NCBI RefSeq assembly: GCF_964194155.1
Contig: NC_135884.1
Location: 96,224,001 to 96,288,000, forward strand
Direction: 5' to 3'
DNA length: 64,000 bases
Source of the DNA: Cetorhinus maximus
Lineage: Eukaryota
The position numbers and the translations under genes are program-made. The notes beneath the pieces were generated by a model. The model did not search any database and was not told the DNA's origin. It saw nothing but the letters and a program-made list of their open reading frames with translations. This document shows positions 15,966 to 60,405 of the stretch, one piece after another (position 1 is the first letter of the stretch; the number at the start of each line of letters is the position of its first letter).

Positions 15966-16539
15966 TACTGTATGGACTGTTCCGAGGGTGCACACTGAGA
16001 CGCACATCAACAACTGCTGGAGAACCATCAACTCAATGAAAGATGCTCTAGGGTCTGCCAAAAGTCATCGGTCTTCCAGTCCGCAGAGCTGTTTACAATC
16101 GAGTGTTGCAGACTAGCATATTTCAATGTCCAGAATGATATGCAGAAGGATGCACTAAAGCTTGGAGCAGCTGCCGCAAAGGCTCAATGGGGAAAGGTCA
16201 CAGCCTCTTGCCATAATACACTGAGGGTCTGGAACTCAGGGAAAAACACCTCGAACTGTGAGCACCAGAGAATATTTGGCATGAAATGTAAATTTATCTC
16301 GTAAATGTAACATGCAGTTGTGAGTATAGTGTGGCACCACAACATTACACGTATTGTATTGAAAGAAATTGAGTTGTATTGCACTTTATGTATTGTCAAA
16401 TTTGAACTGTTATGTAATGTACTTCTACAAGATTTATGAATTAAATGTATTTTTTGAAAAAAATTGGTTGGGTTATGTGAATTATTTGCTGTAATACATT
16501 CAGGAGTTTGAATTTATGTTCCGTTTGCATTTATTGTAG

Positions 16540-16975
16540 TTCGGTTGGTAGCCCGCTAGTCTCTGAGTCACAAGATTCTGTGTTCAAGACTCACTCCAGG
16601 GCTTGAGTACAAAAGTCAAGGCTGACACTCGAGTGCAATACTGAGGGAAGACTGCACTGTCAGAGGAGATGTCTTTTGGATGAGCTGTTCAACCAAGGCC
16701 TCATATGCCTACTTGGGAGGATATAAAAGATCACTATTTCAATGAAGAGCAGGGGAATTATCCTTTGTGGCCTGGACAATATTTATCCCTCAATCAAAAC
16801 CACAAAACAGATTATTTGGTAATGATCACATTGCTGTTTGTGGGACCTTGTTATGCACAAATTAGCTGAGCATTTCATACATTACAACAAAAGTACTTCA
16901 TTAGGTATAAAGTGCTTTGAAAGATCCAGCAATCATGAAAAGCCCTGTATAATTGCAAGTCTTTACTTTCCTTTT
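16540..16975 (+). mobile_element. tRNA-derived SINE (DeuSINE/SacSINE1-like)
   Basis: tRNA-like head (GTTCGGTTGGTAGC...GTTCAAGACTC) and the same body as 5660-6145. Confidence 0.75.
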
Positions 16976-17527
16976 TTATTGTCCCGTCCTGTGGGGATAT
17001 GTCTTAATGTGACATGGCAGCACCCAAGTCAAAACATAGGAAGAATGGCACTATTCCCCCAACTCCCATCATTGGCAGGCTTAATACTGAAACTGGAAGT
17101 ACCAAACTGGCCAACATGAATCCTAATACTGAAGCAATTACACAATCAAATCATTCACTCCACCGTTCACCACACTGATCCATCACAACATGGTTTATGT
17201 TCTACCACCGCACTGCACACAATGGCAATATGGCCATTAAGGTTAAGGTATCATTTTCTGCAATGTGGTCTAATTCATTCTGTACATGCAGTACTGTCAT
17301 TAGAAATGTCATTTGATAAGGAAGAGAATGACTCTTATCACAGGAATTGGAACAGTTTTCTTTATTTACACATAGGAAAATGATCATTTCACAGAAAATT
17401 CATTAACTTTCATTAGTTCATATCCGTACAAACAACTCATCACGAAATAGACACTGAGGACATGCAGCTTGTGGAATACAATATATATGGACAATATTTC
17501 ATCTATTGTGCCTGAAGGGCCTGTTGT

Positions 17528-18382
<855 letters not shown>

Positions 18383-19793: not shown

Positions 19794-21583
19794 ACAAGGA
19801 ATGTTCCACATACCCCATAAAGAGAAAGGCATAGCTGGGGCCCATGCGGGTACCCATAGCAACACATTTACTTTGGAGGAAGTGAGAGGAGTTTAAGGAG
19901 AAATTGTTCAATTGTTCAGTGTAATATTCCTTGTTCCAGTCCTACTCCGGCCCCCTCCCACAACACATTCTCCGGTACATTGATGATTAATTCGGTGCTG
20001 CTTCATGTTCTCGTCTCGACCTGGAAACATTTATTAATTTTACTTCCAATTTCCACCCCTCCATCATTTCCACATGGTCCACCTCTGACACTTCCCTTCC
20101 CTTCCTTGACCTCTTTGTCTCAATTTCTGGTGATAGACTGTCCACCAATATCCATTACAAGCCTACCAACTCCCACAGCTACCTCGACTACAGCTCCTCA
20201 CACCCCGCTTCCTGTAAGGACTCCATCCCATTCTCTCAGTTCCTTCGCCTCCATCGCATCTGTTCTGATGATGCCACTTTCAAAAACAGTTCCTCTGAAA
20301 TGTCCTCCTTCTTCCTTAACCGTGGTTTTCCACCCACGGTGGTTGACAGGGCCCTCAACCATGTCTGGCCCATCAGCCGCGCATCCGCCCTCACACCTTC
20401 CTCTCCCTCCCAGAAACATGATAGGGTCCCCCTTGTCCTCACTTATCACCCCACCAGCCTCCGCATTCAAAGGATCATCCTCCGTCATTTCCGCCAACTT
20501 CAGCATGATGCCACCTCCATACACATCTTCCCTTCACCCCCCCCCCCCACCCCCCGGCGGCATTCCATAGGGATCGTTCCCTCCATGACACCCTGGTCCA
20601 CTCCTCCATCACCCCCTACACCTCCACTCCCTCCCACGGCACCTTCCCATGCAACCGCAGAAGATGCAACACCTGCCCCTTCACTTTCCCTCTCCTCACC
20701 GTCCAAGGGCCCAAACACTCATTTCAAGTGAAACAGCATTTCACTTGCACTTCCCTCAACTTAGTCTACTGCATTCGTTGCTCCCAAAGTGGTTTCCTCT
20801 ACATTGGAGAGACCAAACGCAGACTGGGTGACCGCTTTGCAGAACACCTTTGGTCTGTCTGCAAGCATTACCCAGACCTCTGTGTCGCTTGCAATTTCAA
20901 CACTCCACCCTGCTCTCATGCCCACATGTCCATCCTTGGCTTGCTGCATTGTTCCAGTGAAGCTCAATGCAAACTGGAGGGACAGCACCTCATCTTCCGA
21001 CTAGGCACTTTACAGCCTTCCGGACTAAATATTGAGTTCAACAATTTCAGATCATGAACTCTCTCCTCCATCCCCACCCCCTTTCCGATTTTCCCCCTCC
21101 TTTTTGTTTTTTCCAATAATTTATATAGATTTTTCTTTTCCCACCTATTTCCATTATTTTTAAATGTATTTCTATCCATTGTTTTATCTCTACCTTTTAG
21201 CCTATTTGGAAACCTTCACCCCACCCCACCCCCACTAGGGCTATCTGTACCTTGCTTGTCCTGCTTTCTACCCTTAATTAGCACATTCCTTTAGATAATA
21301 TCACCACCTTCAACACCTCTTTGCCCTTTTGTCTGTGACATCTTTTGGTTATCTCCACCTGTCACTGGCCCTCTATCCAGCTCTTCTTGTCCCACCACCA
21401 CCCCCTCTTAAACCAGCTTATATTTCAACCCTTTTTTATTTTTCCTTAGTTCGTTTGAAGAGTCATGCGGACTCGTAATGTTAACTGTGCTCCTTTCCAC
21501 AGATGCTGCCAGACCTGCTGAGTTTTTCCAGGTATTTTTGTGTTTTTTTTTGGAGTTCTAGCATCCGCAGTTTTTTTGCTTTT
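19794..21583 (+). mobile_element. Penelope-like element A (5'-truncated, with an inverted 5' segment 19794-19921)
   Basis: Frameshifted RT C-terminus and GIY-YIG endonuclease (LVYCIRCSQSGFLYIGET, ORF 20728-21057). The first ~125 bp is the reverse complement of RT sequence seen at 29360-29480. Confidence 0.88.
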
Positions 21584-22181
21584 ATCAATGTAAACTCTGT
21601 TAGACATCAAAACAGGTGAGAAATTCTATGGGACACAGGATCTGGCAGAAAAGGAGAAAGCAGCAAATATCCAGAGTGAAAACAGGGAACCAAACTCCAA
21701 ACAGAGAGTGCAGTCCTGGACTCGCCCAAACGGTGGGGGTGAAACGTGTTGCAGACGCTCAGACACACGCTGACTCCTCAGCAAATGTTGGGAAATTGCT
21801 GTCGTTGAGAAATCTTTTTGGGCCGTGTTGTGAGTGAAGCGGGGAAGGGGCGGGTCGGTCCGGGCCGAATGCACACGGGGCACCGAAGTGATACGGCGGC
21901 TGAAAGTTTGAATTGCACCCGGCTCCTTCACTCACAACACGACCCAAAAAGATTTCTCAATGACAGCAATTTCCCAACATTTCCTGTGGAGTCAGCGTGT
22001 GTTTGAGCGTCTGCAACACGTCCCACCCCCACAGTGTGGGGTGGTCCAGGATGCACTCTCTGTTTGAAGGTTGATTTGTTGTTTTCACTCTGGATATATG
22101 CTGGTTTCTCATTGCTCTGCCAGATCCTGTGTCCCAGAGAGTTTCTCACCTGTTTTGATGTCTAACAGAGTTTATATTGAT
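21584..22181. repeat. Inverted repeat (arms 21584-21839 and 21926-22181) enclosing an orphan MT promoter fragment, unit A
   Basis: The arms are imperfect reverse complements. The 86-bp loop holds GGGGCGGG, TGCACAC (21870) and TGCACCC (21914) as in the MT promoters, but no TATA box or exon. Confidence 0.9.
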
Positions 22182-22344
22182 GCTGTGCTTTCAATGGGCA
22201 GCACGTTTCAAAGCCCCAGTGTTTGGAGAGATGAGAATTGATCAGTTTTGTCTGATCAGTGTCAGGAACCAGGAGTACAGGTGACATTTGGACCGTGTGC
22301 ACCGGCCTGTCGGTTTAAGGGCTGAATTTCTGCACACGACCACA

Positions 22345-24960
22345 ACAACTTGTGTAATAACAATTTATATAGCGCTTTTAGTATCATAAAAATTTCCGAA
22401 GACACTTCACCGGAAATTTATAAGGCAACAATTGTGAAAACTAGGGTGTGATTTTTAAATGATGTGAGTTGAGGGCGAGGGCAGGGGTATAAGTGAGATG
22501 TATTTTAGCCTGGGGGGCTGGTGGAACGGGTTGAAGCTGCAGAGGCATCTGATGAGATAAGTCAGAGAGTGCGATGGAGGCCTTTCGGCCCACTCATTCT
22601 GAGACAAAGAAGTCAGTGAGCTCCTGGCACTGATTGTTGGAGGTGAGGGTGGAGTCGGCAAGGTGGAGGGGTTTAGAAATATGGTTTGTGGTACAGAACA
22701 GGTGTTAGGGGTTAACTTTACATTCCGGGGTGATCCTGGATTAGTGAACAATTTTAACAGACTCATTATTGTGTAATTTCCTGCAGTAATATCAGGAGGT
22801 GGATGGGTAAACCAATTACCCACCTGTCCATTCAGCTCCCTGTGCCTTCAGCTTAAAGGAACAGAGGTGAGGTCCTTACCGGGTGGAATAGCTAAATTGA
22901 GAGAGAGTCATGGATTTATTGGGACTGGGGCATCAATGGTGCAGGTGAGAGTGCAGGTGAGCAAATCAGCCCCTGAAGCATTATCATGGCGAGTGGAGGG
23001 CCAAAGGCTGGAGAGTTGGAATTTTGAAATTTCAGCCTTAAATAAATTGTTGGATATATTTTTTCAGAGGCAGATACAGCAGAAAGTAAAGGCGGTGAAC
23101 AGCGAAGGGGGACGTGGGTGGTGAGTGGGCCCAACAAGTGATCAGATATGGCCTTGGATAGATGCGGTGGACGTAGTGAGTCCCTGTGAGATGGTGAGGT
23201 CAAGGTGGTGTCTGTGAACATGGATTGAGGATTTGACATGGAGGGAGAGATTATGGGAGGATCAGAGGTCAGTGAACTGAGAGGAGAGAACATGATGAAT
23301 CAAGATGGAGGTTGAAATCACTGCAGACCCTCGGTGAAGTGGCTGAGAGAGAAAATTAGTGAATTCTATGGACAGAGTAAAGCAATATCATAAATAAAGG
23401 GTTAGATTCAATTTCTGCAGTCCTGCCACATCCAGTCATTACTGGTCTGGGGCTATATAACAGCTAACAGGAGCATGTGGCTGCATAAATGACCCCATGC
23501 TCAAAGATTGGGGAGCCCAGCACATGACTGCAAAAGACAAGGCTGAACCATGTTCAACCATCTTCAACCAGAGGTACTGAGTGGATAATATATCTCAGCT
23601 TCCTCCTGCAGTCCCCAGTATCACAGAAGCCAATTTGATTTGGTCCATGTGGTATGACAAAATGGTTAAAGACACTGAATACAGTAAAGTCTATGACATC
23701 CCAGCAGCAGCACTAAGACTTGTGCTCCACATCCAATCACAACCCTAGCCATGCTGTTACACAGGATCACAGGGAATAGGAACATGGGAAATCGGAGCAG
23801 GAGTTGGCTATTCAACCCATTGAGCTTGCAATGACATTCAAACAGATCCTGGCTGATCATCTACCTCAACGTCATTTTCCCCACTATCTCCATCTCCCCT
23901 GATGTCATTAGTCTCCAGAAATATATTGATTTCTGTCTTGAACATGCTCAATGACTGAGCTTCCACAACCCCCTGGGGTAGAGAATTCCAAAGATTCCCC
24001 ACCCTCTGAGTTATGAAATACCTTCTCGTCTCAGTGTTAAATGGCCTGTCCCTTATTCTGAGACAGTGTCCCCTGGATCTAGATTCACCAGCCAGGGTAA
24101 ACATCCTGTCCACATCGTCCCTGTTACACCTGGTAAGAATTTTGTAAGTTTTAATGAGATCACTTCTCATTCTTCAAAACTCTAAAGAATACAGGCCCAG
24201 TTTCCTCAATCTCTCCACATAACACAATCCTGCCATCCCAGGGATCAGTCTGGTGAACCTCCATTGCATTCTCTCTAAGGCAAGTATATCCTTCCATAGA
24301 TAAGGAGACCAAAACTGGGCACAATACTCCAGGTGAGGTCTCACCAAGGCCCGGTACAATTGCAGCAAGACATCTTTACTCCTCTACACAAATCCCCTTG
24401 AGATGAAGGCCAACATACCATTTGCCTTCCTAATTATTTGCTGCACCTGCATGCCAGCTTTTAGAAACTCATGCACAAGGACACCCAGGTTTATTTGGAC
24501 ACCAAACTTCCCAACCTCTCACCATATAAGGAATGCTCAATTACAGTACAGCTACAATACTGGCATCGAGCTGGTCATATAGATAACTTTCCAAGAATGG
24601 CCAATACGCTAAAAGCAGGAAAAATCCCATCCTGCCAAGCACTGTGCCAGCAGCCTGCTCTTCATTATGAACAAAGTGATGGGAGGTGACATGGGCAGTG
24701 CTATCATGGGTCCTTATTCACCAATCAGCTGCTCACTGATGTTCAGGTTGGGTTTCACAGGGCAAATCCTGGAACTCCCTCCCTAACAGCACTGTGGGTG
24801 TTCCTACACCATACTGACTGCACATGTTCAAGAAGGCAGTTCACCACCACCTTCTCAAGGGCAATTAGAGATGGGCAACAAATGTTGGTATTGTCAGCGG
24901 TGCCCACATCTCTTGGACGAATAAGAAATGAAATATCTTGGTGTGTTGTCTAAGATGAAT
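22345..24960. mobile_element. Decayed LINE fragments (L2/CR1 types) forming the inter-promoter spacer, repeated in every unit
   Basis: Minus-strand CR1 ORFs 23838-24368 (LYRALVRPHLEYCAQFWSP) plus older fragments. The same block is at 31880-34500 and 41350-43970, and inverted at 56390-58950. Confidence 0.7.
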
Positions 24961-25284
24961 TTTATTGGGAGAAAAAATACACTAAGGCTTATCCTTGTAT
25001 TCAGGATGATATTGGGATGGTGAGCAGTGTTGAGGGAGCAGGGGACAGGCGGATGATGTGTAATCTGGAGCAGCCAGATGTGGCGGTGAGTGGTGAAACC
25101 AATTGTCTGTCATACCCATTGCTGAGATCAGGGTGGATCCGGGTGAATGGAGAGGACCCTATGTCCACCTTGTAGACTGAAGTCTGATTTTAGTCAATTT
25201 GGAAATATTTACAAAAACAGAGGACCCGATTGAAATTGGTGTCACTGAGAAATCTTTTTGGGCCGTGTTGTGAGTGAAGGAGAC

Positions 25285-25405
25285 GGGTGCAATTCAAACT
25301 TTCAGGTGCTGAAACACATCGGTGCCCCGTGTGCATTCAGCCCGGACAGACCCGCCCCTTCCCCGCTTCTGCAGCCGGTTCCCCAACGATCACAAGCCCA
25401 TAAAA
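25285..25405 (+). promoter_or_regulatory. MT copy 2 proximal promoter
   Basis: Antisense MRE cores GGGTGCA 25285-25291 and GTGTGCA 25329-25335. GC box 25351-25358. CATAAAA 25399-25405. Confidence 0.85.
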
Positions 25406-25487
25406 CTCGGCTCCGATTCAGCAAACGGCACAAGATTGAAAAGCGCTGATTGGGTGACGGCTCGAAACTGCAGAAGAAGTTCCTGAA

Positions 25488-26343
<856 letters not shown>

Positions 26344-27479
26344 ACAACAGGCCCTTCAGGGACAATAGATGAAATATTGTCCATATGTATTGTATTCCAC
26401 AAGCTGCATGTCCTCGGTGTCTATATCCTGATGAATTGTGTGTTTACATAAAGTAATGAAAAGTGTCTGAATATTGTTGAAATTCTGATTTTTGGATCAA
26501 GAGTTAAATAAATTTTCAGTATTTGAATTCCAGTCATAAGTCTTATTCTGTTACTTAAAGGTGTGATATTACTAATAACAGCACAAGATCTAGGAAATGA
26601 GTTGAGTCTAACTTTGCCATTAAGACCCATGGCATAACATAAGTCACATTAGCATCTGTCACAGTCTGGCCAATGAGGTTAAACAATGTGATGAAGGACC
26701 AGTGTCAGAAATGGTGGAGTGAATGAATGAATGGCAGTTCTGCTGACCCTCTTATCCATGAGTGTGGTAGCATGCTACTGTCAAATATACCAGAAATTGG
26801 TTGTAAGCCAGTCACATCTGCCTGTTAACTGTGCATCCTAAAGTTAATTTTAAAATATTCTTTGGAAGTTTTGGCAGAAATGCAGACTCCTTCAGAGATT
26901 TGTGAACTTGCTTCCCCAGGTCTTGCTGTTTCTGCACTCCCTCGAAAGTTGTATCATTTATTTCACATTGTATCTCCACATTCTTTGTTTAAAGTCTATC
27001 AAATCACATTTCCGTGCCTTAAATTTCATCTGTCAGATATCTGATCATTTTACCACTCTGTTTCCTTGAGCCTGTAATTATCCTCCTCATTGTTGACTAC
27101 TACACCCCCTCTAGACCCTTTAAGGTTTCTAACTTGAGGAAGGCCAAACCTTTCATTCTTGTTATCCAATTTTCTCCTATCCAATCTTAACTTCTCTGTT
27201 ACTGCTTCATTGAGAACATCATTCTCTACAGAGAACAAGGTGGCAAAAATACACCTCGTACCTTAACCATGTCCTCTGCCTCTAGACAAAGGTTAGCTTT
27301 TCAGTTCCTAATCAGCCCCACATTCTGCATTGACTACTCTTTCATCACTGATGTGTTTAATGGGGAAAATCCACATTCTGGGGAACTGCCATCATAATGC
27401 ACCCAAGGGCTGAAAGATATGGAAAAATCTCCCAGATGTGTGCACCGGAATATTTCCGACATGAAACGTAAATGTATCT

Positions 27480-28827: not shown

Positions 28828-31118
28828 GACTGACCTCTACCTCGCGGAGGCTGAGCATCAACTCGCAGACACTTCCTCCTACCTCTCCCTGGACCATGAC
28901 CCCACCACTGAACACCAAGCCATTGTTTCCAGGACTGTCACCGACCTCATCTCCCCTGGAGATCTTCCTCCCACAGCTTCCAACCTGATAGTCGCCCAAC
29001 CTCGGACGGCCCGCTTCTACCTCCTACCCAAAATCCACAAACAGAACTGTCCCGGCAGACCGATCGTGTCAGCCTATTCCTGCCCCACGGAACTCATTTC
29101 ACGTTATCTTGACTCCCTTCTCTCTCCCCTTGTCCAGTCCCTGCCCACCTACATCCGTGATTCCTCTGACACCTTACGTCACATCAACAATTTCCAGTTC
29201 CCTGGTTCCAACCGCTTCCTCTTCACCATGGATGTCCAATCCCTCTACACCTCCATCCCCCACCAGGATGGTCTGAGGGCCTTTAGCTTATTCCTTGAAC
29301 AGAGGCCCGAACAATCCCCATCCACCACTACTCTCCTCCGTCTGGCTGAACTTGTTTTCACACTGAACAATTTCTCCTTTAACTCCTCTCACATCCTCCA
29401 AATAAAAGGTGTGGCTATGGGTACCCGCATGGGCCCCAGCTATGCCTGTCCCTTTATGGGGTATGTGGAACATTCCTTGTTCCAGACCTACTCCGGCCCC
29501 CTCCCACAACACTTTCTCTGGTACATCGATGATTACTTCGGTGCTGCTTCATGCTCTCGTCGGGACCTGGAAAAATTTATTGATTTTGCTTCCAATCTCC
29601 ACTCCTCCATCATTTTCACATGGTCCATCTCTGACACTTCCCTTCCCTTCCTTGACCTCTCTGTCTCAATTTCTGGTGATAGACTGTCCACCAATATCCA
29701 TTACAAGCCTTCCAACTCCCACAGCTACCTCGACTACAGCTCCTCACACCCCGCTTCCTGTAAAGACTCCATCCCATTCTCTCAGTTCCTTCGCCTCCGT
29801 CGCATCTGTTCTGATGATGCAACCTTCAAAAACAATTCCTCTGACATGTCATCCTTCTTCCTTAACCGAGTTTTTCCACCCACGGTCGTTGACAGGGCCC
29901 TCAACCGTGTCTGGCCCATCTCCCGCGCATCCTCCCTCACGCCTTCTCCTCCTTCCCAGAAACATGATAGGGTCCCCCTTGTCCTCACTTATCACCCCAC
30001 CAGCCTCCGCATTCAAAGGATCATCCTCCGCCATTTCCGCCAACTCCAGCATGATGCCACCACCAAACACATCTTACCTTCACCCCCCCTGGCGGCATTC
30101 CGTAGGTATCGTTCCCTCCGGAACACCCTGGTCCACTCCTCCATCACCCCCTCCTTCTCAATCCCCACCTATGGCACCTCTCCATGCCCACGCAGAAGAT
30201 GCAACACCTGCCCCTTCACTTCCTCTCTCCTCACCATCCAAGGGCCCAAACACTCCTTTCAAGTGAAACAGCATTTCACTTGCACTTCCCTCAACTTAGT
30301 CTACTGCATTCGTTGCTCCCAATGCGGTTTCCTCTACATTGGAGAGACCAAACGCAGACTGGGTGACCGCTTTGCAGAACACCTTTGGTCTGTCCGCAAG
30401 CATTACCCAGACCTCCCTGTCGCTTGCCATTTCAACACTCCACCCTGCTCTCATGCCCACATGTCCATCCTTGGCTTGCTGCATTGTTCCAGTGAAGCTC
30501 AACGCAAGCTGGAGGGACAGCACCTCATCTTCCGACTAGGCACTTTACAGCCTTCCGGACTAAATATTGAGTTCAACAATTTCAGATCATGAACTCTCTC
30601 CTCCATCCCCACCCCCTTTCCGATTTTCCCCCTCCTTTTTGTTTTTTCCAATAATTTATATAGATTTTTCTTTTCCCACCTATTTCCATTATTTTTAAAT
30701 GTATTTCTATCCATTGTTTTATCTCTACCATTTAGCCTATTTGGATACCTTCACCCCACCCCACCCCCACTAGGGCTATCTGTACCTTGCTTGTCCTGCT
30801 TTCTACCCTTAATTAGCACATTCCTTTAGATAATATCACCACCTTCAACACCTCTTTGCCCTTTTGTCTGTGACATCTTTTGGTTATCTCCACCTATCAC
30901 TGGCCCTCTATCCAGCTCTTCTTGTCCCACCACCACCCCCTCTTAAACCAGCTTATATTTCAACCCTTTTTTATTTTTCCTTAGTTCGTTTGAAGAGTCA
31001 TGCGGACTCGTAATGTTAACTGTGCTCCTTTCCACAGATGCTGCCAGACCTGCTGAGTTTTTCCAGGTATTTTTGTGTTTTTTTTTGGAGTTCTAGCATC
31101 CGCAGTTTTTTTGCTTTT
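28828..31118 (+). mobile_element. Penelope-like element, chimaeric, with uninterrupted RT + GIY-YIG frame to the stop at 30592
   Basis: FYLLPKIHK, GRPIVS, MDVQSLYTSIP, QIKGVAMGTRMGP, WYIDD, linker CPRRRCNTC (Neptune-like), VYCIRCSQC..LYIGET, GLN. 5'-truncated at 28828. Confidence 0.93.
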
Positions 31119-31717
31119 ATCAATGTAAACTCTGTTAGACATCAAAACAGGTGAGAAATTCTATGGGACACAGGATCTGGCAGAAAAGGAGAAAGCAGCA
31201 AATATCCAGAGTGAAAACAGGGAATCAAACTCCAAACAGAGAGTGCAGTCCTGGACTCGCCCGCACGGTGGGGGTGAAACGTGTTGCAGACGCTCAGACA
31301 CACGCTGACTCCGCAGCAAATGTTGGGAAATTGCTGTCGTTGAGAAATCTTTTTGGGCCGTGTTGTGAGTGAAGCGGGGAAGGGGCGGGTCGGTCCGGGC
31401 CGAATGCACACGGGGCACCGAAGTGATACGGCGGCTGAAAGTTTGAATTGCACCCGGCTCCTTCACTCACAACACGACCCAAAAAGATTTCTCAATGACA
31501 GCAATTTCCCAACATTTCCTGTGGAGTCAGCGTGTGTTTGAGCGTCTGCAACACGTTTCACCCCCACAGTGTGGGGGAGTCCAGAACTGCACTCTCTGTT
31601 TGAAGGTTGATTTGTTGTTTTCACTCTGGATATATGCTGGTTTCTCATTGCTCTGCCAGATCCTGTGTCCCAGAGAGTTTCTCACCTGTTTTGATGTCTA
31701 ACAGAGTTTATATTGAT
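31119..31717. repeat. Inverted repeat enclosing an orphan MT promoter fragment, unit B
   Basis: Near-identical to 21584-22181. Confidence 0.9.
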
Positions 31718-35021: not shown

Positions 35022-35875
<854 letters not shown>

Positions 35876-38360: not shown

Positions 38361-40653
38361 GACTGACCTCTACCTCGCGGAGGCTGAGCATCAACTCGCA
38401 GACACTTCCTCCTACCTCCCCCTGGACCATGACCCCACCACTGAACACCAAGCCATTGTTTCCAGGACTGTCACTGACCTCATCTCCTCTGGAGATCTTC
38501 CTCCCACCGCTTCCAACCTGATAGTCGCCCAACCTCAGATGGTCCGCTTCTACTTCCTACCCAAAATCCACAAACAGAACTGTCCTGGCAGACCGATCGT
38601 GTCAGCCTATTCCTGCCCCATGGAACTTATTTCTCGTTATCTTGACTCCCTTCTCTCTCCCCTTGTCCAGTCCCTTCCCACCTACATCCGTGATTTCTCT
38701 GACACCTTACGTCACATCAACAATTTCCAGTTCCCTGGTTCCAACCCCTTCCTCTTCACCATGGACGTCCAATCCCTCTACGCCTCCATCCCCCACCAGG
38801 ATGGTCTGAGGGCCTTTAGCTTATTCCTTGAACAGAGGCCCGAACAATCCCCATCCACCACTACTCTCCTCCATCTGGCTGAACTTGTTCTCACACTGAA
38901 CAATTTCTCCTTTAACTCCTCTCACTTCCTCCAAATAAAAGGTGTGGCTATGGGTACCCGCATGGGCGCCAGCTATGCCTGTCTCTTTATGGGGTATGTG
39001 GAACATTCCTTGTTCCAGTCCTACTCCAGCCCCCTCCCACAACACTTTCGATGATTACTTCAGTGCTGCTTCATGCTCTCGTTGGGACCTGGAAAAATTT
39101 ATTAATTTTGCTTCCAATCTCCACCCCTCCATCATTTTCACATGGTCCATCTCTGACACTTCCCTTCCCTTCCTTGACCTCTCTGTCTCAATTTCTGGTG
39201 ATAGACTGTCCACCAATATCCATTACAAGCCTTCCAACTCCCACAGCTACCTCGACTACAGCTCCTCACACCCCGCTTCCTGTAAGGACTCCATCCCATT
39301 CTCTCAGTTCCGTCGCCTCCGTCACATCTGTTCTGATGATGCTACCTTCAAAAACAATTCCTCTGACATGTCATCCTTCTTCCTTAACCGAGGTTTTCCA
39401 CCCACAGTCATTGAAAGGGCCCTCAACCGGGTCCGGCCCATCTCCCGCGCATCCGCCCTCATGCCTTCTCCTCCCTCCCAGAAACATGATAGGGTCCCCC
39501 TTGTCCTCACTTATCACCCCACCAGCCTCCGCATTCAAAGGATCATGCTCCGCCATTTCCGCCAACTCCAGCATGATGCCACCACCAAACACATCTTACC
39601 TTCACCCACCCGGCGGCATTCCGTAGGGATCGTTCCCTCCGGAACACCCTGGTCCACTCCTCCATCACCCCCTCCTTCTCAATCCCCACCTATGGCACCT
39701 CTCCATGCCCACGCAGAAGATGCAACACCTGCCCCTTCACTTCCTCTCTCCTCACCATCCAAGGGCCCAAACACTCCTTTCAAGTGAAACAGCATTTCAC
39801 TTGCACTTCCCTCAACTTAGTCTACTGCATTCGTTGCTCCCAATGCGGTTTCCTCTACATTGGAGAGACCAAACGCAGACTGGGTGACCGCTTTGCAGAA
39901 CACCTTTGGTCTGTCCGCAAGCATTACCCAGACCTCCCTGTCGCTTGCCATTTCAACACTCCACCCTGCTCTCATGCCCACATGTCCATCCTTGGCTTGC
40001 TGCATTGTTCCAGTGAAGCTCAACGCAAACTGGAGGGACAGCACCTCATCTTCCGACTAGGCACTTTTCAGACTTCCGGACTTAATATTGAGTTCAACAA
40101 TTTCAGATCATGAACTCTCTCCTCCATCCCCACCCTCTGTCAGATTTTCCCCCTCCTTTTTGTTTTTTCCAATAATTTATATAGATTTTTCTTTTCCCAC
40201 CTATTTCCATTATTTTTAAATGTATTTCTATCCATTGTTTTATCTCTACCTTTTAGCCTATTTGGATACCTTCACCCCACCCCACCCCCACTAGGGCTAT
40301 CTGTACCTTGCTTGTCCTGCTTTCTACCCTTAATTAGCACATTCCTTTAGATAATATCACCACCTCAAACATCTCTTTGCCCTTTTGTCTATGACATCTT
40401 TTGGTTATCTCCACCTATCACTGGCCCTCTATCCAGCTCTTCTTGTCCCACCAACCCCCCTCCCCCCCCACCCCCACTCTTATCCCAGCTTATATTTCAA
40501 CCCTATTCTATTTTTCCTTAGTTCGGTTGAAGAGTCATGCGGACTCGAAATGTTAACTGTGCTCCTTTCCACAGATGCGGCCAGACCTGCTGAGTTTTTC
40601 CAGGTACTTTAGTTTTTTTTTGGAGTTCTAGCATCCGCAGTTTTTTTGCTTTT
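38361..40653 (+). mobile_element. Penelope-like element, chimaeric, frameshifted
   Basis: RT and GIY-YIG are split over ORFs 38179-39054, 38942-39787 and 39784-40113. A deletion at ~39048 damages the YIDD motif. Confidence 0.92.
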
Positions 40654-41182
40654 ATCAATGTAAACTCTGTTAAACATCAAAACAGGTGAGAAATTCAATG
40701 GGACACAGGATCTGGCAGAAAATGAGAAAGCAGCAAATATCCAGAGTGAAAACAGGGAATCAAACTCCAAACAGAGAGTGCAGTCCTGGACTCGCCCGCA
40801 CGGTGGGGGTGAAATCTTTTTGGGCCGTGTTGTGAGTGAAGCGGGGAAGGGGCGGGTCTGTCCGGCTGAATGCACACGGGGCACCGAAGTGATACAGCGG
40901 CGGAAAGTTTCAATTGCACCCGGCTCCTTCACTCACAACACGACTCAAAAAGATTTCTCAATGACAGCAATTTCCCAACATTTCCTGTGGAGTCAGCGTG
41001 TGTTTGAGCGTCTGCAACACGTTTCACCCCCACAGTGTGGGGTGGTCCAGGATGCACTCTCTGTTTGAAGGTTGATTTGCTGTTTTCACTCTGGATATTT
41101 GCTGCTTTCTCATTGCTCTGCCAGATCCTGTGTCCCAGAGAGTTTCTCACCTGTTTTGATGTCTAACAGAGTTTATATTGAT
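40654..41182. repeat. Inverted repeat enclosing an orphan MT promoter fragment, unit C (left arm with ~70-bp deletion)
   Basis: As 21584-22181, but GGGGGTGAAA is joined directly to TCTTTTTGGGCC at ~40814. Confidence 0.88.
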
Positions 41183-44488: not shown

Positions 44489-45343
<855 letters not shown>

Positions 45344-47929: not shown

Positions 47930-50200
47930 GACTGACCTCTACCTCGCGGAGGCTGAGCGTCAACTCGCAGACACTTCCTCCTACCTCTCCCTGGACCATG
48001 ACCCCACCACTGAACACCAAGCCATTGTTTCCAGGACTGTCACTGACCTCATCTTCCCTGGAGATCTTCCTCCCACAGCTTCCAACCTGATAGTCGCCCA
48101 ACCTCGGATGGCCCGCTTCTACCTCCTACCCAAAATCCACAAACAGAACTGTCCCGGCAGACCGATCATGTCAGCCTTTTCCTGCCCCACGGAACTCATT
48201 TCTCATTATCTTGACTCCCTTCTCTCTCCCCTTGTCCAGTCCCTTCCCACCTACATCCGTGATTCCTCTGACACCTTACGTCACATCAACAATTTCCAGT
48301 TCCCTGGCCCCAACCCCTTCCTCTTCACCATGGACGTCCAATCCCTCTACACCTCCATCCCCCACCAGGATGGTCTGAGGGCCTTTAGCTTATTCCTTGA
48401 ACAGAGGCCCGAACAATCCCCATCCACCACTACACTCCTCCGTCTGGCTGAACTTGTTGTCACTGAACAATTTCTCCTTTAACTCCTCTCACATCCTCCA
48501 AATAAAAGGTGTGGCTATGGGTACCCGCATGGGCCCCAGCTATGCCTGTCTCTTTACGGGGTATGTGGAACATCCCTTGTTCCAGTGCTACTCCGGCCCC
48601 CTCCCACAACTCTTTCTCCAGTACATCGATGATTACTTCAGTGCTGATTCATGCTCTTGTTGGGACCTGGAAAAATTTATTAATTTTGCTTCCAATCTCC
48701 ACCCCTCCATCATTTTCACATGTCCATCTCTGACACTTCCCTTCCCTTCCTTGACCTCTCTGTCTCAATTTCTGGTGATAGACTGTCCACCAATATCCAT
48801 TACAAGCCTTCCAACTCCCACAGCTACCTCGACTACAGCTCCTCACACCCTGCTTCCTGTAAGGACTCCATCCCATTCTCTCAGTTCCTTCGCCTCCTTC
48901 GCATCTGTTCTGATGATGCTATCTTCATAAACAATTCCTCTGACATGCCCTTCTTCCTAAACTCAGGTTTTCCACCCACGGTCGTTGACAGGGCCCTCAA
49001 CCGTGTCCGGCCCAACTCCCGCGCATCCGCCCTCACACCTTCTCCTCCCTCCCAGAAACATGATAGGGTCCCCCTTGTCCTCACTTATCACCCCACCAGC
49101 CTCCGCATTCAAAGGATCATCCTCCGCCATTTCTGCCAACTCCAGCATGATGCCACCACCAAACACATCTTACCTTCACCCCCCCCAGCGGCATTCTGTA
49201 GGAATCATTCCCTCCGGGACACCCTGGTCCACTCCTCCATCACCCCCTACTCCTCAACCCCCACCTATGGCACTTCCCCATGCCCACGCAGATGATGCAA
49301 CACCTGCCCCTTCACTTCCTCTATCCTCACCGTCCAAGAGCCCAAACACTCCTTTCAAGTGAAGCAGCATTTCACTTACATTTCCCCTAACTTAGTCTAC
49401 TGTATTCGTTGCTCCCGATGCGGTCTCCTCTACATTGGAGAGACCAAACGCAAACTGGGCGACCATTTTGTAGAACACCTGCTGTATGTCCACAAGAAAG
49501 ACCCAGACCTCCCTGTCGCTTGCCATTTTAACACTCCACCCTGCTCTCTTGCCCACCTGTCTGTCCTTGGCTTGCTGCATTGTTCCAGTGAAGCTCAACG
49601 CAAACTGGAGGAACAGCACCTCATCTTCTGACTAGGCGCTTTACAGCCTTCCGGACTGAATATTGAATTCAACAACTTTAGACCTTGAACTCCCTCCTCC
49701 ATCCCCACCCCCTTTCCATTTCTTCCCCCTCCCTTTTGTTTTTTCCAATTATTTATATAGATTTTTCTTTTCCCACATATTTCCATTATTTTTAAATCTA
49801 TACCTGTAATGCCCTGTCAGTCTTTCCACCCCACCCCCACTAGAGCTATACCTTGAGTGTCCTGCCATCCATTCGTAATTAGCACATTCTCTTAGATAAT
49901 ATCACCACCTTTAACACCCCTTGTTTCCTTTGTCTGTGACATCTTTTGATTATCTGCTCCTATCACTGCTTGCTTGTCCCTACAACCACCCCACTCCAAC
50001 TTCTCTCCCCCCCACCACCCCACCTTAAACCAGCTTATATTTCACCCCTCTCCTAATTTTACCCAGTTCTGTTGAAGGGTCATGAGGACTCGAAACGTCA
50101 ACTCTTTTCTTCTCCGCCGATGCTGCCAGACCTGCTGAGATTTTCCAGGTAATTCTGTTTTTGTTTTGGATTTCCAGCATCCGCAGTAGTTTTTGTTTTT
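47930..50200 (+). mobile_element. Penelope-like element B inserted in CR1
   Basis: Frameshifted RT (QYIDD) and GIY-YIG (VYCIRCSRCGLLYIGET). CR1 sequence continues on both sides. Confidence 0.92.
50065..50103 (+). ncRNA. Minimal type-I hammerhead-ribozyme-like motif in the Penelope 3' UTR
   Basis: AGTT-CTGTTGA-A-GGGTC(ATGAG)GACTC-GAAAC-GTC-AACT gives helix I, a core with an A6U deviation from CUGANGA, a helix II hairpin, GAAA, a palindromic ACGT helix III and a GUC cleavage triplet. Confidence 0.6.
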
Positions 50201-53197
50201 ACCAACTTCTCCAATCTTCCCTCATAACTGAAGAGTCTGATTCCTTGTAAACCTTGTAAACCTCTTCTACACTCTCTCCAATGCATTCATATTGCCCCGA
50301 ACTTTAACAAGACTCCAGCTGAGGTCTAATCAGTGTCTTATATAAGTTCATCATAACTTCCCTGCTCTTGTACTCTAAGCCGCTATTAATGAAGCCTAGA
50401 GTACTGTATGCTTTAGAAACAGCTCTCCCTCCCTGTCCTGCCACCTTTAATGATTTAGTTACACCAAGAGCTCGATCATTTATATATATCAGGAAGAGCA
50501 AGGGTCCCAATGCCGACCCTGGGGAAACTCCACGACAAACCTTCTTCCAGCCCGAAAAATACCTATTAACCATTACTCTCTGTTTCCTATCCCTCAGGCA
50601 ACTTTTTGTATCCACGTTGCTACTGTCCCTCTTATTCCATGACCAATAACTTTCCTCACAAGCCTGTTGTGTGCCACCGTATGGAGCGCCTTTTGGAAGT
50701 CCATAGACACCACATCTACAGCCTTGCCCTCACCAACCATCTCTGTTACCTCTTCAAAAATCTCCAGCAAATTAGTTAGACAGGACTTTCTTTTAATGAA
50801 TCCATGCTGACTCTTCCAAATCAGCCCAAATTTTTCCATGTGACTATTAATTCTATCCCGAATAATTGTTTCTGGATGTTTCCCCACCACTGAAGTTCGG
50901 TAATTGCAGGGTAGATCTTTACAACCTTTTTTGAACAAGGGCATAATGTTTGCAATTCTCCAGTCCCCTGGCACCTGCCCCGAATCCAGGGAACATTGAA
51001 AGATTATTGCCAGTGTCTCTGCAATTTCCACTCTCACTTCCTTCAATATTCTTGGATGCATCTCATCCGGCCTCAGCGCCTTATCAACATTAAGTATTGA
51101 CAGCTTATCCAATATTTCCTCCTTATCAATATTAAACCCTTCTATTGACTGAGTTTCCTCCTCAGTCACCATGGCCTGCGCAGCATCTACCTCGTAGGTA
51201 AAGATTAATGCAAAGTATTCATTTAACATCTCAGCTATGCCTATTGCCTTTATATGCAAATCCTCTTTTTGGCACCTAATCGGCCCTACTCCATTTACCA
51301 CCCTTTTACTATTGAGGTGCTTATAGCATACTTTGGGATTTCCTTTTATGTTGGCTGCCAGTCCTTCTTCATAACCTCTCTTTGTTTCTTGTATTTGCTT
51401 TTTCACATCCCTTCTGCATTCAGCTTGGTTCTCAATTGTATTTGCTGCCTGAAACCTGTTGTAAGCATACTTTTTTCTACGTTGACTTAATTTCTATGTC
51501 CATTGTCATCCAGGGAGCTCTGGATTTGTTTGTCATATCCTTCCTCTTTGAGAGAACATACCTTGACTGTGCCCAAACCATCTCCTCTTAGAAGGTACCC
51601 CATTGTTCAGCTGCTGTTTTTCCCGCCAACCTTTGGTTCCAGTCTATCGGGCCCAGCTCCGTTCCTGCTCCATTGAGGTCCGCTCTGTACCAGTTGATTA
51701 TTCTTACTCTGGATTGGCCAATGTCATTTTCCACCTAAACCGAAACCTTATGATACAATGGCCCCATTACTCTAAATGTTCCCCAACCATTACTTGATCT
51801 ACTTGGCCCACCTCATTTCCAAGAACCAGGTCTAGCAGTGCCTCCGACTTGTTGGACTGGGCACATACCGCTGTAAGAAATTCTCCTGAACACAATCTAG
51901 GAACGCTCGTCCCTCACTGCCCTTTACACTACAACTATCCAGTCTATATATGGGTAATTAAAGACCACCATTATGACTACTCAATGATGTTTACACCTCT
52001 CTGTAATTTCCTTGCAGATTTGTTCCTCTATATCCTCCCGCTAGCTGGTGGTCTATACATTACTGCAAGCGGTGTAATTGCACCCTTCTTAATCCTTAGC
52101 TCTAGCCAAATTGATTCTGTCCTTGAATCCTCTCACACATCCTCTTTCTTCAGTACTACGATACTCTCCTAAACCAAAAACACCACCCTCCTCCGTCTTT
52201 CCCTTTCCTATATTTTTTGAATGCTTTGTAACCAGAAATATTTAGCACCCAGAGCTTCCTTAAGCCAGGTCTCTGTTATCGCCACAACATCATAATCCCA
52301 TAAGGCAATCTGTGCCTGTAACTCCCCAATTTTATTAACTGTACTCTGTGCATTCACATGTGTGCAGTGTAATCCTCATTTAGACTTCATTACTTGCTCC
52401 CTTACTCTGACTCCACCTATTAAATTACTATTCTCTATTTAAGTGCTATCTGCCTCTCCCAAAATTCCGTGTGCCCTGGTGTTATTTTCTAATATTCTCT
52501 CCTGGTTCCCACGCCACTGCTGAGTTAATTTAAACCCTCCCCAACAACACTAGCAAAACGACCTGCAAGGAATTCAGTCCCAGATCTGTTCAGCTGCAGC
52601 ACGTCCAGCTTGTATAGCTCCCATCTCCACCACAGCCAGTCCCAGTGTCCCAGGAACCTAAAGCCCTCCCTCTTGCACCATCTTTGCAGCCATGTATTCA
52701 TCCATCTTATCTTCCTATTTGAGTACTCACTTGCACGTGGCACTGGGAGTAATCCGGAGATTACTACCTTAGAGGTCCTGCTTGCTAATTTTCTATCTAT
52801 CTCCCTAAATTCCGATTGCAGGATCATATCCCCCTTCCTATCGATGTTGTTAGTACCAATGTGGACCATGACCTCTGGCTGTTTGCCCTCCTCCACAAGA
52901 ATGTCCTGCAGCCGTTTTGTGACAGCCTTGACCCTTGCACCAGGGAGGCAACAAACTACCCTGGAGTCACTTGACTGCCGCAGAAACTCCTCTCTGCTCC
53001 CCTAACTAAAGAATCCCCTATCGGTACTGCCCTTCCGCTCTGCTTCCTCCCCTCCTGTACAGCTGGGCCACTCGTGGTGCCATGGATTGGCTCTTGCTGC
53101 ACTTCTCCAGTGATCCATCACCCCGCCCCCCCTACATATCCAGAATGGAAAACCGGTTAGTGAGCGGGACCTCTGGGGACTCCTGCACTACCTGCCT

Positions 53198-55016: not shown

Positions 55017-55861
<845 letters not shown>

Positions 55862-56069: not shown

Positions 56070-58987
56070 CTTCACTCACAACACGGCCCAAAAAGATTTC
56101 TCAATGACAGCAATTTCAATCGGCTGCTTTGTGTTTGAAAATATTTCCAAAGTGACTAAAATCACACTTCAGTCTACAAGGTGGACGTAGGGTCCTCTCC
56201 ATTCCCCCGGGTCCATCCTGATCTCAGCACTCACCGCCACATCTGGCTGCTCCAGATTACACATTATCTGCTTCTCCTCTGCTCCCTCAGCACTACTCAC
56301 CATCCCAGAATAACCCTGGAATACAAGAATAACCCTTGGTGTCTTTTTTCTCCCACTAACCATCATCTTAGAGAACACACCAAGATATTTTCTTTCTTAT
56401 TCGTCCAAGAGATGTGGGCACTGCTGACAATGCCAACATTTATTGCCCATCTCTAATTTCCCTCGAGAAGGTGGTGCTGAGCTGCCTTCTTGAACATGTG
56501 CAGTCCATGTGGTGTACGAACACCCACAGTGCTGTTAGGGAGGGAGTTCCAGGATTTGCCGAGTGAAACCCAACCTGGACATCAGTGAGAAGCTGATTGG
56601 TGAATAAGTGACCCATGATAACACTGTCCATGTCACCTCCCATCACTTTGTCCATAATGAAAAGCAGGCTGCTGGCACAGTGCTTGGTAGGATGGGATTT
56701 TTCCTGCTTTTAGTGTTTTGGTCATTCTTGGACAGTTTCTACATTACCAGCTCAATGCCAGGATTGTAGTTGTATTGTAACAGGGCATTCCTTAAATGGT
56801 GAGAGGTTGGGAAATTTGGTGTCCAAAGAAACCTGGGTGTCCTTGTTCATGAGTTTCTAACAGCTAGCATGCAGGTGCAGCAAATAGTTAGGAAGGCAAA
56901 TGGTATGTTGGCCTTCATCGCAAGGGGATTTGTGTACAGGAGTAAAGATGTATTGCTGCAAATGTACAGGGCCTTGGTGAGACCTCACCCAGAATATTGT
57001 GTACTGTTTTGGTCTCCTTATCTACAGAAGGATATACTTGCCTTAGAGAGGGTGCAATGGAGGTTCACCAAACTGATCCCTGGGATGGCAGGATTGTGTT
57101 ATGAGGACAGATTGAGGAAACTGGGCATCTATTCTCTAATGTTTTGAAGAATGAGAGGTGATCTCAGTAAAACGTACAAAATTCTTACCGGGTATAACAG
57201 GAATGACGTGGATAGGATGTTTTCCCTGGCTGGTGAGTCTAGATCCAGGGGACTCTGTCTCAGAAAAAGGGGTAGGCGGTTTGTGACTGAGAGGATAAGG
57301 GAATTCTTTACTCAGTGTGTGGTGAGTATTTGGAATCCTCTACCCCACGGGGCTGTGGAAGCTCAGTCATTAAGCATGTTCAAGACAGAAATCAATATAT
57401 TTCTGGAGACTAATGACATCAGGGGAGATGGAGATAGTGGGGAAAATGATGTAGAAGTAGACGATCATCCAGGATCTGTTTGAATGTCAGTGCAGGCTCA
57501 ATGGGCTGAATGGCGTGCTCCTGCTCCGATTTCCCATGTTCCTATTCCCTATGCTCCTGTGTAACAGCATGGCTAGGGTTATGATTGAATGTGGAGCACA
57601 AGTCTTAGTGCTGCTGCTGGGATGTCATAGACTTTACTGTATTCAGTGTCATTAGCCATTTCTTCATACCACGTGGACCAAATCAAATTGTCTTCAAATT
57701 GGCATCTGTGATGCTGGGGACTGCAGGAGGAGGCCGAGATGTATTATCCACTCAGCACCTCTGTTTGAAGATGGTTGAACATGCTTCAGCCTTGTCTTCT
57801 GCAGTCATGTGCTGGGCTTCCCAATCTTTCAGGAGTGGGATATTTATGCAGCCTCATTAAATAGTCCCCCACCAGGAATGACTGGATGTGGCAGGACTGC
57901 AGAACCTACCCATTATTTGTGACATTGCTTTACTCAGTCCATAGAATTCACTAATTTTCTCTCTCAGCCACTTCACCGAGGGTCCAGAGTGATTTCAGCT
58001 ACCATTTTGATTCGTCATGTTCTCTCTCCTCTCAGTTCACTGCCCTCAGATCCTCCAATAATCTTTCCCTCCATGTCAAATCTCCAATGCATGTCCACAG
58101 ATACCACCTTGACCTCACCATCTCAAAGGGTCTCACTATTTCCACAGTGTAAATCCAAGGCCATCGTTGATCACTTCTTGGTCTCACTCTCCACTCACAT
58201 CCCACATCCCCATCTTTACTTTCTGCTGTATCTGCCTCTGAAAAAATCTATCCAACAATTTATTTACAGCTGCAATTTCAAAATTCCAACTCTCCAGCCT
58301 TTGGCCCTCCACTCGCCATGATAATGCTTCAGGAGCTGATTTCCTCAACTGCACTCTCACCTGCTCCATTGATCCCCTAGTCCCAATAAATACATGACTC
58401 TCTCTCACTTTAGCTATTCCACCCGGTAAGGACCTCACCTCTGTTCCTTTAAGCTCAAGGCCCAGGGAGCTGAATGGACAGGTGGGTAACTGGTTTACCC
58501 ATTCACCTCCTGATATTGCTGCACTAAATTACACAATAATGAGTCTGTTAAAACTGTTCACTACTCCAGGACCACCCCGGAATGTAAAGTTAACCACGAA
58601 CACCTGTTTTCTACCGCAAACCATATTTCTAAACCCCTCCACCTTGCCGACACCACCCTCACCTCCAACAATCAGTGCCAGGAGCTCACTGACTTCTTTG
58701 TCCAAGAATGAGTGGGCCGAATGGCCTCCATCGATCTCTCTGATTATCTCATCAGATGCCTCTGCAGCTTCAACCCGTCCCACCAGCCCCCCAGGCTAAA
58801 ATACATCTCACTTATCCCCCTGCCCTGGCCCTCAACTCACATCATTTAAAAATCATATCCTAGTTTTCACAATTGTTGCCTTATAAAGTTCCGGTGAAGT
58901 GTCTTCCGACGTTTTTATGATACCAAAGGTGCTATATAAATACAAGTTGTTGTTGTGCACAGAAATTCAGCCTTTAAACCGACAGGC

Positions 58988-59467
58988 GGGTGCACACGGT
59001 CCAAATGTCACCTGTACTCCTGGTTCCTGACACTGATCAGACAAAACTGATCAATTCTCATCTCTCCAAAGACTGGGGCTTTGAAACGTGCTGCCCATTG
59101 GAAGCACAACATCAATGTAAACTCTGTTAGACATCAAAACAGGTGAGAAATCCCTGGGACACAGGATCTGGCAGAGCAATGAGAAACCAGCAAATATCCA
59201 AAACAGAGAGTGCAGTCCTGGATTCGCCCGCACTGTGGGGGTGAAACGTGTTGCAGACGCTCAGACACACGCTGACTCCACAGGAAATGTTGGGAAATTG
59301 CTGTCATTGAGAAATCTTTTTGGGCCGTGTTGTGAGTGAAGGAGCCGGGTGCAATTCAAACTTTCAGCCGCTGAATCACTTCGGTGCCCCGTGTGCATTC
59401 AGCCCGGACAGACCCGCCCCTTCCCCGCTTCTGCAGCCGGTTCCCCACCGATCACAAGCCCATAAAA
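58988..59467 (+). promoter_or_regulatory. MT copy 6 promoter with distal and proximal MREs
   Basis: Overlapping double core GGGTGCACAC 58988-58997, GAGTGCA 59208-59214, GGGTGCA 59347-59353, GTGTGCA 59391-59397, a GC box, and CATAAAA 59461-59467. Confidence 0.85.
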
Positions 59468-59549
59468 CTCGGCTCCGATTCAGCAAACGGCACAAGATCG
59501 AGAAGTGCTGATTGGGTGACGGCTCGAAGCTGAAGAAAAAGTTCCTGAA

Positions 59550-60405
59550 ATGTCTGACTCGAAGCCCTGTGTGTGCCTGGATGGTGAGTGGTGACTGGTG
59601 TCAGTCCTTTCAGCACAGTGTCCCGGCTCAGTCTCACTGAGGGGCTGCAGCATTGTAGGGGAGGCTGTTTCTGAAAGTCACTGGAGAAGAGAATGTGACA
59701 AAGAGCCGGGCCTCCTCCACACGGGGGGCATTTCTCAGGGTTTTCCCACAACTCAGTGTCTGTGTTTTTCCTGTTTTCAGGATCCTGCTCCTGTGAAAAC
59801 ACCTGCAGGTGCTCCGACTGCCGATGTCCCAGCAGCAAAGCTGGACGCTGCCGGAAAAGTGAGTAACTGTGGGAGAGTTTAAAACTCCTCACATTGTATT
59901 TATGTGACAGATAGTTCTGGGCAGAACTCAGAGAGGACCACGATAGAAAAGTACAAGATCCAAGATTTCACCTGATTTATTTCCCATCAGATTTATTCAA
60001 TGTCCAATCGAAAGAATCTGGAGACAGGAACCCTGCTGGTTAAAGAAGTGTCTTAGTTTTACATCAGGAAGTGTTGATATTATAGACTTCTCACTAGAAA
60101 TAGTGTTGTAGAGACAGTGACAGTTACATCTTCACCCAAAGTCTCACACACACAGTGTTGTGATGCTGAGCCTCTTCAGATGGGTAACTTGGAGGTATGA
60201 CAGAGATTAGTTTGTGAGGGAGGTGCTGGGGGCTGTAATGGGAGGCCCTGGGGGTGTTTCAGTGAATTCATTCATTGTTCCTGATTTCTGTCTTTGTCCT
60301 CTCCTCTCAGGTTGCTGCCCTTGCTGTCCTGCAGGATGCACGAACTGCGCCAATGGCTGTGTGTGTAAAGGGAATCCCTCTGACAAATGTAGCTGCTGTT
60401 CCTGA
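59550..60405 (+). CDS. mt: Metallothionein copy 6 (3 exons, 68 aa, S41P variant)
   Basis: Exons 59550-59583, 59781-59858 and 60311-60405. The alpha domain starts CCPCC. AATAAA 60565-60570. Confidence 0.96.

Follow-up and report, generated by a model that had tools for sequence, protein, structure and literature searches.

How does a metallothionein (MT) promoter come to lie between the arms of a DNA hairpin with no gene behind it, and does it retain any activity there? We addressed this question in a shark locus of 64,000 nt (the window, i.e., the whole stretch of DNA that was analyzed) by self-comparison and by a motif scan within the window. MT promoters are bound by MTF-1 and Sp1, and the consensus of the MRE core is TGCRCNC. 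Neither a shark MT cluster or promoter nor an orphan promoter arising by fold-back was found described in the literature searched, a scope outside which most subscription journals fall.

The hairpin of the first repeated unit (21584 to 22181) consists, as an initial annotation of this DNA had described, of 256-bp inverted arms around an 86-bp spacer (Table 1). Its single-strand fold reaches -274.7 kcal/mol (z, -36), and none of 100 shuffled sequences was equally stable. The left and right arms differ by 9.8% in unit 1 and by 8.2% in unit 2 (256-bp arms); the arm length of 256 bp arises because a retroelement (PLE-1) fixes the outer limit of the left arm. The spacer matches, in reverse complement, positions 59342 to 59427 at the intact MT gene F. 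It is a left-pointing MT proximal promoter, again as annotated, with a GC box (21848), two MRE cores (21870 and 21914), and 10 CpG sites but no TATA box, and its break stops about 30 bp short of the TATA-like CATAAA of F (59462). The junction carries the GAAG microhomology that had been claimed (21836 to 21839), identical in all three units; at least 4 matching bases are found at 0.5% of random position pairs. All six MRE cores listed earlier within ~640 bp (21706, 21870, 21914, 22052, 22295, and 22331) were recovered, and they are present also in units 2 and 3. The ~3.5 kb given as the distance to the downstream MT gene corresponds to 3,517 to 3,518 bp from the spacer to the next TATA-like site. 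Repeats of the hairpin had been placed at 31119 and 40654; both exist, but the left arm of the third copy has been shortened to 188 bp by a 68-bp deletion after 40814. The copies differ from one another by 2 to 4%. The hairpin is thus a real, old scar of DNA rearrangement, in which an MT promoter has been cut off from its gene. Selection of the palindrome as a cruciform was considered and rejected, given that the perfect palindromic stretches are short (33 to 35 bp at the longest and 16 bp beside the spacer) and that the arms lack homogenization; the palindrome itself would have no selected function.

Table 1. Positions of the hairpins, MT genes, cassettes, and Penelope-like elements in the window
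Feature	Positions	Strand	Description
MT gene A	17528..18382	-	Intact, 68 aa from 3 exons; left-hand partner in the cassette copy ending in the left arm
PLE-1	19794..21583	+	Inverted in its 5' part (19794-19910); takes the place of ~1.87 kb of cassette (corresponding to 57242-59110 in E-F)
Left arm	21584..21839	+	F-type upstream DNA, forward; matches 59111-59341; MRE core 21706; ends in GAAG
Spacer	21840..21925	-	86 bp; TATA-less MT proximal promoter; GC box and 2 MRE cores
Right arm	21926..22181	-	F-type upstream DNA, reversed; MRE core 22052
Rest of inverted head-to-head cassette	22182..25231	-	Reverse of E-F intergenic DNA
MT gene B	25488..26343	+	25232..26343 with 138-bp shared promoter module; E/A-type upstream, old 3' flank
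Chimeric Penelope-like element, unit 1/2 junction	28828..31118	+	PLE-2 5' end, PLE-1 3' end
Hairpin copy 2	31119..31717		Arms 31119-31374 and 31461-31717; spacer 31375-31460
MT gene C	35022..35875	+	Intact
Chimeric Penelope-like element, unit 2/3 junction	38361..40653	+	Switch point as in the unit 1/2 element
Hairpin copy 3	40654..41182		Left arm 188 bp; spacer 40842-40926
MT gene D	44489..45343	+	Intact
PLE-2	47930..50201	+	Insertion within a LINE fragment; bounds the triplication on the right
MT gene E	55017..55861	-	Left member of the intact head-to-head pair
Intact E-F intergenic cassette and F promoter	56118..59549	+	Cores 58988-59397; GC box 59414; TATA-like site 59462
MT gene F	59550..60405	+	Right member of the intact head-to-head pair

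The intact template state of the hairpin lies in the same window, as the head-to-head pair formed by E (minus strand) and F (plus strand). Positions 21836 to 25096 are the reverse of 59431 to 56224, i.e., the F promoter up to the break followed by the whole E-F intergenic cassette, and this inverted copy extends for 3.3 kb and leads into gene B, which occupies the place of E. On the other side of the hairpin, the upstream DNA of A, left of PLE-1, matches that of E as far as 57241. These matches make A and the left arm parts of a single forward cassette copy, from which ~1.87 kb is missing at the retroelement, and they make the right arm and B parts of a second, inverted copy. The palindrome probably once measured ~3.3 kb per arm plus genes. 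The upstream DNA of B differs by ~9% from those of A and E, and its 3' flank differs by 36 to 45% from those of A, E, and F. Since the 3' flank of F is of the A/E type and unlike the B type, E-F is not a simple tandem copy of the A-B pair.

The window contains six intact three-exon MT genes with near-identical 68-amino-acid proteins (Pfam PF00131 match, 47.6 bits; cutoff, 23). A conversion domain (59294 to 60490 and its paralogues), comprising the 138-bp promoter module and the gene body, differs by only 0 to 8% per comparison window among the five genes compared; its edges are abrupt, and the 3' flanks differ by 12 to 45% or more. Just two coding differences exist among the six genes: Pro to Ser at residue 6 in C (35022 to 35055) and Ser to Pro at residue 41 in F (60311 to 60330). 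The TATA-like site of gene E (55946 to 55957) reads CGTAAA, compared with CATAAA in the other five, and the E promoter may be weaker for this reason. The outer 3' flanks of A (16400 to 17430) and F (60500 to 61775) are old inverted paralogues over ~1.3 kb, which have in common both a SINE-like insert and the unique DNA on its far side. A GC-rich 29-bp tandem repeat of ~22 copies (53839 to 54480) abuts the 3' flank of E. At 15660 to 15930, an MT 3'-flank remnant ~70% like those of E and F adjoins no exons and looks like the trace of an older, lost MT gene. A search of the window for MT exon remnants beyond the six genes detected none.

For the origin of the hairpin, the initial annotation had proposed either a fold-back (template switch) or a deletion between converging promoters, with a gene removed in each case. 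This was the right pair of hypotheses, and we lean toward fold-back; removal of a gene is not required. Under this reading, the DNA would have broken shortly before the TATA box in the promoter of the right-hand gene, and the 3' end would have folded back and primed on GAAG. Synthesis would then have copied the cassette back into the left-hand gene, after which the new end would have rejoined the right-hand gene through near-identical MT sequence. The product would be a gene B with the upstream DNA of its partner and its own old 3' flank, and with its former promoter stranded in the loop. No coding region need be lost, because the return through MT-gene homology already orphans the promoter.

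The structure of the locus agrees with these steps at several points. The hairpin reads as F-type upstream DNA in forward orientation followed by the same DNA reversed from 86 bp further on, joined at GAAG; positions 59111 to 59341 of the F region are accordingly represented in both orientations, and the spacer template (59342 to 59427) is represented once per junction. The two breakpoints, 86 bp from each other on the template, share the 4-bp inverted microhomology GAAG, and this combination is the signature of a fold-back. A second, stabilizing junction, which we infer from the chimeric flanks of B (young upstream, old 3' flank), would have its switch point hidden within homogenized gene DNA. 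The distance between left and right arms (7.8 to 9.8% in units 1 and 2) equals that between the upstream DNA of A and those of B and D (8.7 to 9.1%), as expected if the arms and the cassette arose in the same copying event and drifted afterward. Each arm differs less from F (3.9 to 5.2%) than from the other arm (7.8 to 11.2%), which fits fold-back only with slow evolution of the live F promoter or intervening conversion; changes unique to the left arm, the right arm, and live F number 8, 8, and 2, respectively.

Among known systems, the closest is the yeast ura3-52/URA3 class (PMC7467729, PMC10622511), likewise described as having a short inverted microhomology and a loop of tens of bases. Yeast fold-back loops have a reported median of 35.5 nt in the wild type, and they are reported to be resolved most often by recombination with a homologous gene that lies in opposite orientation on the distal fragment (PMC7467729), which resembles the second junction suggested here by the flanks of B; homology-mediated rescue of fold-back inversions is also described elsewhere (PMC10622511). 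Unlike these selected laboratory rearrangements, the present hairpin is fixed in a vertebrate germ line and is old, with arms 8 to 10% apart, and its second junction is not directly visible because the gene bodies have been homogenized. Human inverted duplications with a disomic spacer, as reported in PMC3907307, share the presence of a spacer between the copies and a microhomology of similar length (2 to 8 bp in human fold-back junctions and 4 bp here). However, these cases are large, involve terminal deletions, and have spacers of 766 bp or more, whereas the present rearrangement is interstitial, with ~3.3 kb copied around 86 bp. A spacer so far below the 766 to 70,466 bp of the human cases (PMC3907307) counts against fold-back.

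The main competing explanation begins with two inverted head-to-head cassettes placed tail to tail (A with a lost gene G, and a lost gene F' with B), from which the two inner genes would have been lost in a single deletion that fused their promoters at GAAG; triplication would have followed as under the fold-back reading. The left arm does sit where the upstream DNA of a partner of A would be expected, and the cassette tree is star-like, with site patterns of 57 for E, 52 for A, 40 for the unit, and 3 for the three-way class (1,234 columns) in the comparison of upstream DNA that bears on a common origin of the arms, in which A and B do not stand out as sisters. The greater likeness of each arm to F than to the other arm is also what such a deletion would leave. 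Losses of this kind occur at this locus, since the fourth cassette piece (63360 to 64000) also lacks its F-type gene, and the gene-less MT 3' flank near 15,660 to 15,930 would represent another. However, a deletion requires two extra genes, and its two breakpoints must lie no more than 86 bp apart in paralogue coordinates; it also leaves the old 3' flank of B unexplained, and the exon search of the window revealed no remnants of the lost genes. Gene conversion blurs the tree, so we keep this origin as the less likely alternative, with about half the weight of fold-back. A simple inversion between 19794 and 63290 was dropped as a candidate, as the DNA left of 63290 is a LINE and not the missing half of the cassette. 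Long reads are known to contain fold-back chimeras, and no junction-bridging contig, nor the junction in any joint, was present among the 32 matches listed of about 300,000 (contigs of four public runs compared at 85% likeness with 21760 to 28250, which takes in 80 bp of the left arm; LINE/SINE matches dominated), but an assembly or read artifact is very improbable, as it would yield identical arms, whereas these arms are 8 to 11% apart with indels of their own, and the three copies are 2 to 4% apart, one with a private 68-bp deletion, around an identical junction.

Of the 24 public runs listed as matching this DNA, 20 contain part of the stretch and 4 contain at least half of it, all 4 from a single study that may be its source; no RNA run was among those listed. 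Contigs of two other organisms bear on the age of the parts that make up this rearrangement. The B-type 3' flank is present in both (35 differences in 369 positions and 33 in 353), as is the cassette (48 in 397 and 76 in 601); both parts are therefore at least as old as those splits, which these distances would place at about the depth of the arm split. The contigs of both organisms also cover a 25-bp stretch that is absent from F (rows 22078 to 22079), suggesting that its loss is peculiar to F. In another organism (run X5), several contigs that match the B-type 3' flank (26362 to 27420) have 5 to 8 times the depth of the cassette contigs; this hints weakly, given that contig depth is not copy number, that the B-type gene is multicopy there too.

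Tandem duplication by unequal crossing-over between retroelements on the same strand is well known for Alu/LINE-type NAHR. The 9.5-kb unit carrying the hairpin was multiplied in this manner, the crossing-over partners being two Penelope-like elements on the same strand. In both internal elements, the 5' junction is that of PLE-2 (inside a LINE) and the 3' junction is that of PLE-1 (at the arm). Before ~30,200, the first internal element differs by 3 to 16% from PLE-1 (left) and by 1 to 9% from PLE-2 (right); past that point, the differences are 0 to 4% and 7 to 23%, respectively. Both internal elements change parent at the same point, near 30,190 to 30,200, so the duplicate stems from one unequal crossover and the third copy from a later one within the unit. 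The repeats at both unit ends and the chimeric elements at the internal junctions are as in Alu/LINE-type NAHR; the mediators (Penelope-like, with RT and GIY-YIG domains) and the cargo (an MT gene with an orphan promoter) are unlike it. Since the hairpin was copied as a passenger, its threefold presence is no evidence of function.

The assignment of these elements is based on RVT_1 (E, 3.5e-5) followed by GIY-YIG (E, 0.0025) in one frame, both below the Pfam gathering scores, in a domain scan that covered one of the four copies. A Penelope-like element is described as a single ORF with an RT and, at its C terminus, a GIY-YIG endonuclease (PMC8557442). The chimeric element at 28592 to 30592 has a 666-codon open frame with RT and GIY-YIG matches, the first part of which lies in the LINE, and the frames of the three other copies are broken. 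At the start of PLE-1 (19794 to 19919), where the 1.87 kb of cassette is missing, a 117-bp piece of the element itself is inverted and overlaps the forward part by ~15 bp, an arrangement like that of twin priming. A fourth cassette piece (63290 to 64000) is oriented like the unit copies, and a short Penelope-like tail stands in place of its F-type gene end. The junction of this piece and the PLE-1 junction (21584) share an identical 8-bp overlap, ATCAATGT, at 59111 to 59118 of the F region. This overlap resembles the halves of one target-site duplication, yet the two sites are 42 kb apart and the tails apparently belong to different subfamilies. The 1.87 kb absent at PLE-1 may have been moved in a single complex insertion; otherwise, two insertions struck the site.

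Turning from origin to activity, the six MRE cores in 640 bp exceed the chance expectation (background, 1 per 1,379 bp; Poisson P of about 1e-5). The cluster is inherited from an F-type promoter and not new: five cores stand in the same arrangement over 410 bp upstream of intact gene F (58988, 58991, 59208, 59347, and 59391), of which four are retained in the right-hand copy and one is mirrored in the left arm, the equivalent of 58988 having decayed. Core 22295 is inherited, and core 22331, missing from F and from the copy at 63360, is probably new. The spacing is similar as well, at 3,435 bp from the F promoter to the E TATA-like site versus 3,517 bp from the hairpin spacer to its downstream gene.

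The initial annotation had proposed that this cluster acts as a metal-responsive distal enhancer. Under such a reading, which is compatible with either origin of the hairpin, MTF-1 and Sp1-type factors on the six MREs and the GC box would maintain an unmethylated island and raise expression of the MT gene 3.5 kb away in response to zinc, and each amplified unit would bring its own enhancer. The annotation had set escape of the MRE cores from neutral decay as one measure of this, and here the outcome is divided. The six listed cores are intact in all three units, one of them gained, but the arms have diverged by 8 to 10%, in step with the neutral change seen in the flanking cassette, and of the inherited cores one has decayed; moreover, at least five of six cores would be kept without selection 46 to 61% of the time. 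Each spacer departs from the live consensus at 4 of 86 positions, the number predicted by neutral drift, and the spacers differ among units by 0 to 5.9%, compared with 2 to 4% elsewhere. None of the seven variable spacer columns falls in a motif, which is unremarkable for the 20 core and GC-box positions (P = 0.145) and reaches a P value of 0.033 for 32 extended motif positions, a post hoc choice. The spacer of unit 3 has one change in common with E, and conversion from live promoters can refresh a spacer; the same unit has persisted without 68 bp of its arm, which also speaks against a conserved enhancer. Sequence decay near pseudogenes may, according to one report, trail the loss of binding (PMC4868113), and this lag makes constraint tests weak in either direction.

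The retention of CpG sites relative to flanking DNA, a second measure named in the annotation, was observed but is not specific to the hairpin. The observed/expected CpG ratio is 0.92 around the spacer versus 0.31 in the window. When the CpGs that two or more units contain are counted, transitions affect 3 of 23 in the hairpin and its flank, compared with 27 of 71 downstream (P = 0.038). The downstream count comprises 7 of 21 past the gene and, within the retroelement frame, of which the third copy is more diverged, 20 of 50, and with non-retroelement downstream DNA alone, the P value is 0.16. Loss is also low (2 of 26) in the remaining upstream DNA, so the retention spans that whole region. 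A deeper comparison, with unequal lineage counts, gives a loss of 1 of 13 for the hairpin versus 5 of 8 for the gene-distal cassette (P = 0.014). Within the spacers, all seven template CpGs are retained in all three units, four of the six substitutions in orphan spacers create a CpG (12% by chance), and units 1 and 2 have 10 CpGs per spacer versus 7 in live F. On this basis, the hairpin region is probably unmethylated in the germ line. Such a predicted state fits factor binding, but it is also compatible with conversion from live promoters or with a wider low-methylation domain.

CpG retention and motif sparing, and only these two, weakly suggest lasting activity. Trout MT-A works with six MREs over 793 bp (PMC3867414). 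MT promoters are cited as belonging to inducible genes whose enhancers overlap the promoter (PMC12864986). Five to six MREs over several hundred bases are, judging from the trout gene, normal in fish MT genes (PMC3867414); those of trout MT-A serve the adjacent gene, whereas the hairpin cluster is displaced and partly mirrored. Epromoters (PMC8602369, PMC12864986) and repurposed P/E elements (PMC6172195), as described, share with the hairpin a CpG-rich stress-gene promoter, clustered factor sites, and co-inducible genes nearby. Epromoters, however, drive a gene of their own, and the hairpin promoter has no TATA box, start site, or gene. The hairpin was therefore not classed as an Epromoter, as it has no active gene of its own, being cut ~30 bp before the TATA-like site with no exon following. 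A change from promoter to enhancer is, in addition, the rare direction in mammals, reported for 1 of 66 and 1 of 49 polarized elements (PMC6172195). We thus regard maintenance of the stranded promoter as a zinc-responsive distal enhancer as unlikely. Under the reading that we favor, the stranded promoter could not start a normal mRNA; it would probably still bind GC-box and MRE factors, enough to remain unmethylated, and the downstream gene would receive at most distal MRE input, as the F promoter can already give E. Similarly improbable is the full course of events in which one fold-back would have created a gene-less, unmethylated, zinc-responsive enhancer that was then amplified as a gene-plus-enhancer unit by retroelement-mediated unequal crossing-over.

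The scar is a clear germ-line record of a mechanism known mostly from yeast assays and patients. It places inversion, conversion, and then retroelement-mediated triplication in the growth of this MT cluster to at least six genes, the near identity of which confounds expression readouts that serve as markers of metal exposure. If the orphan promoter is active, it would offer an unusually clean natural test of promoter-to-enhancer change, in which the ancestral promoter and three copies can be compared; a conversion in this rare direction would then be accompanied by its intact ancestral state (E-F) and three replicates within the same 45 kb.
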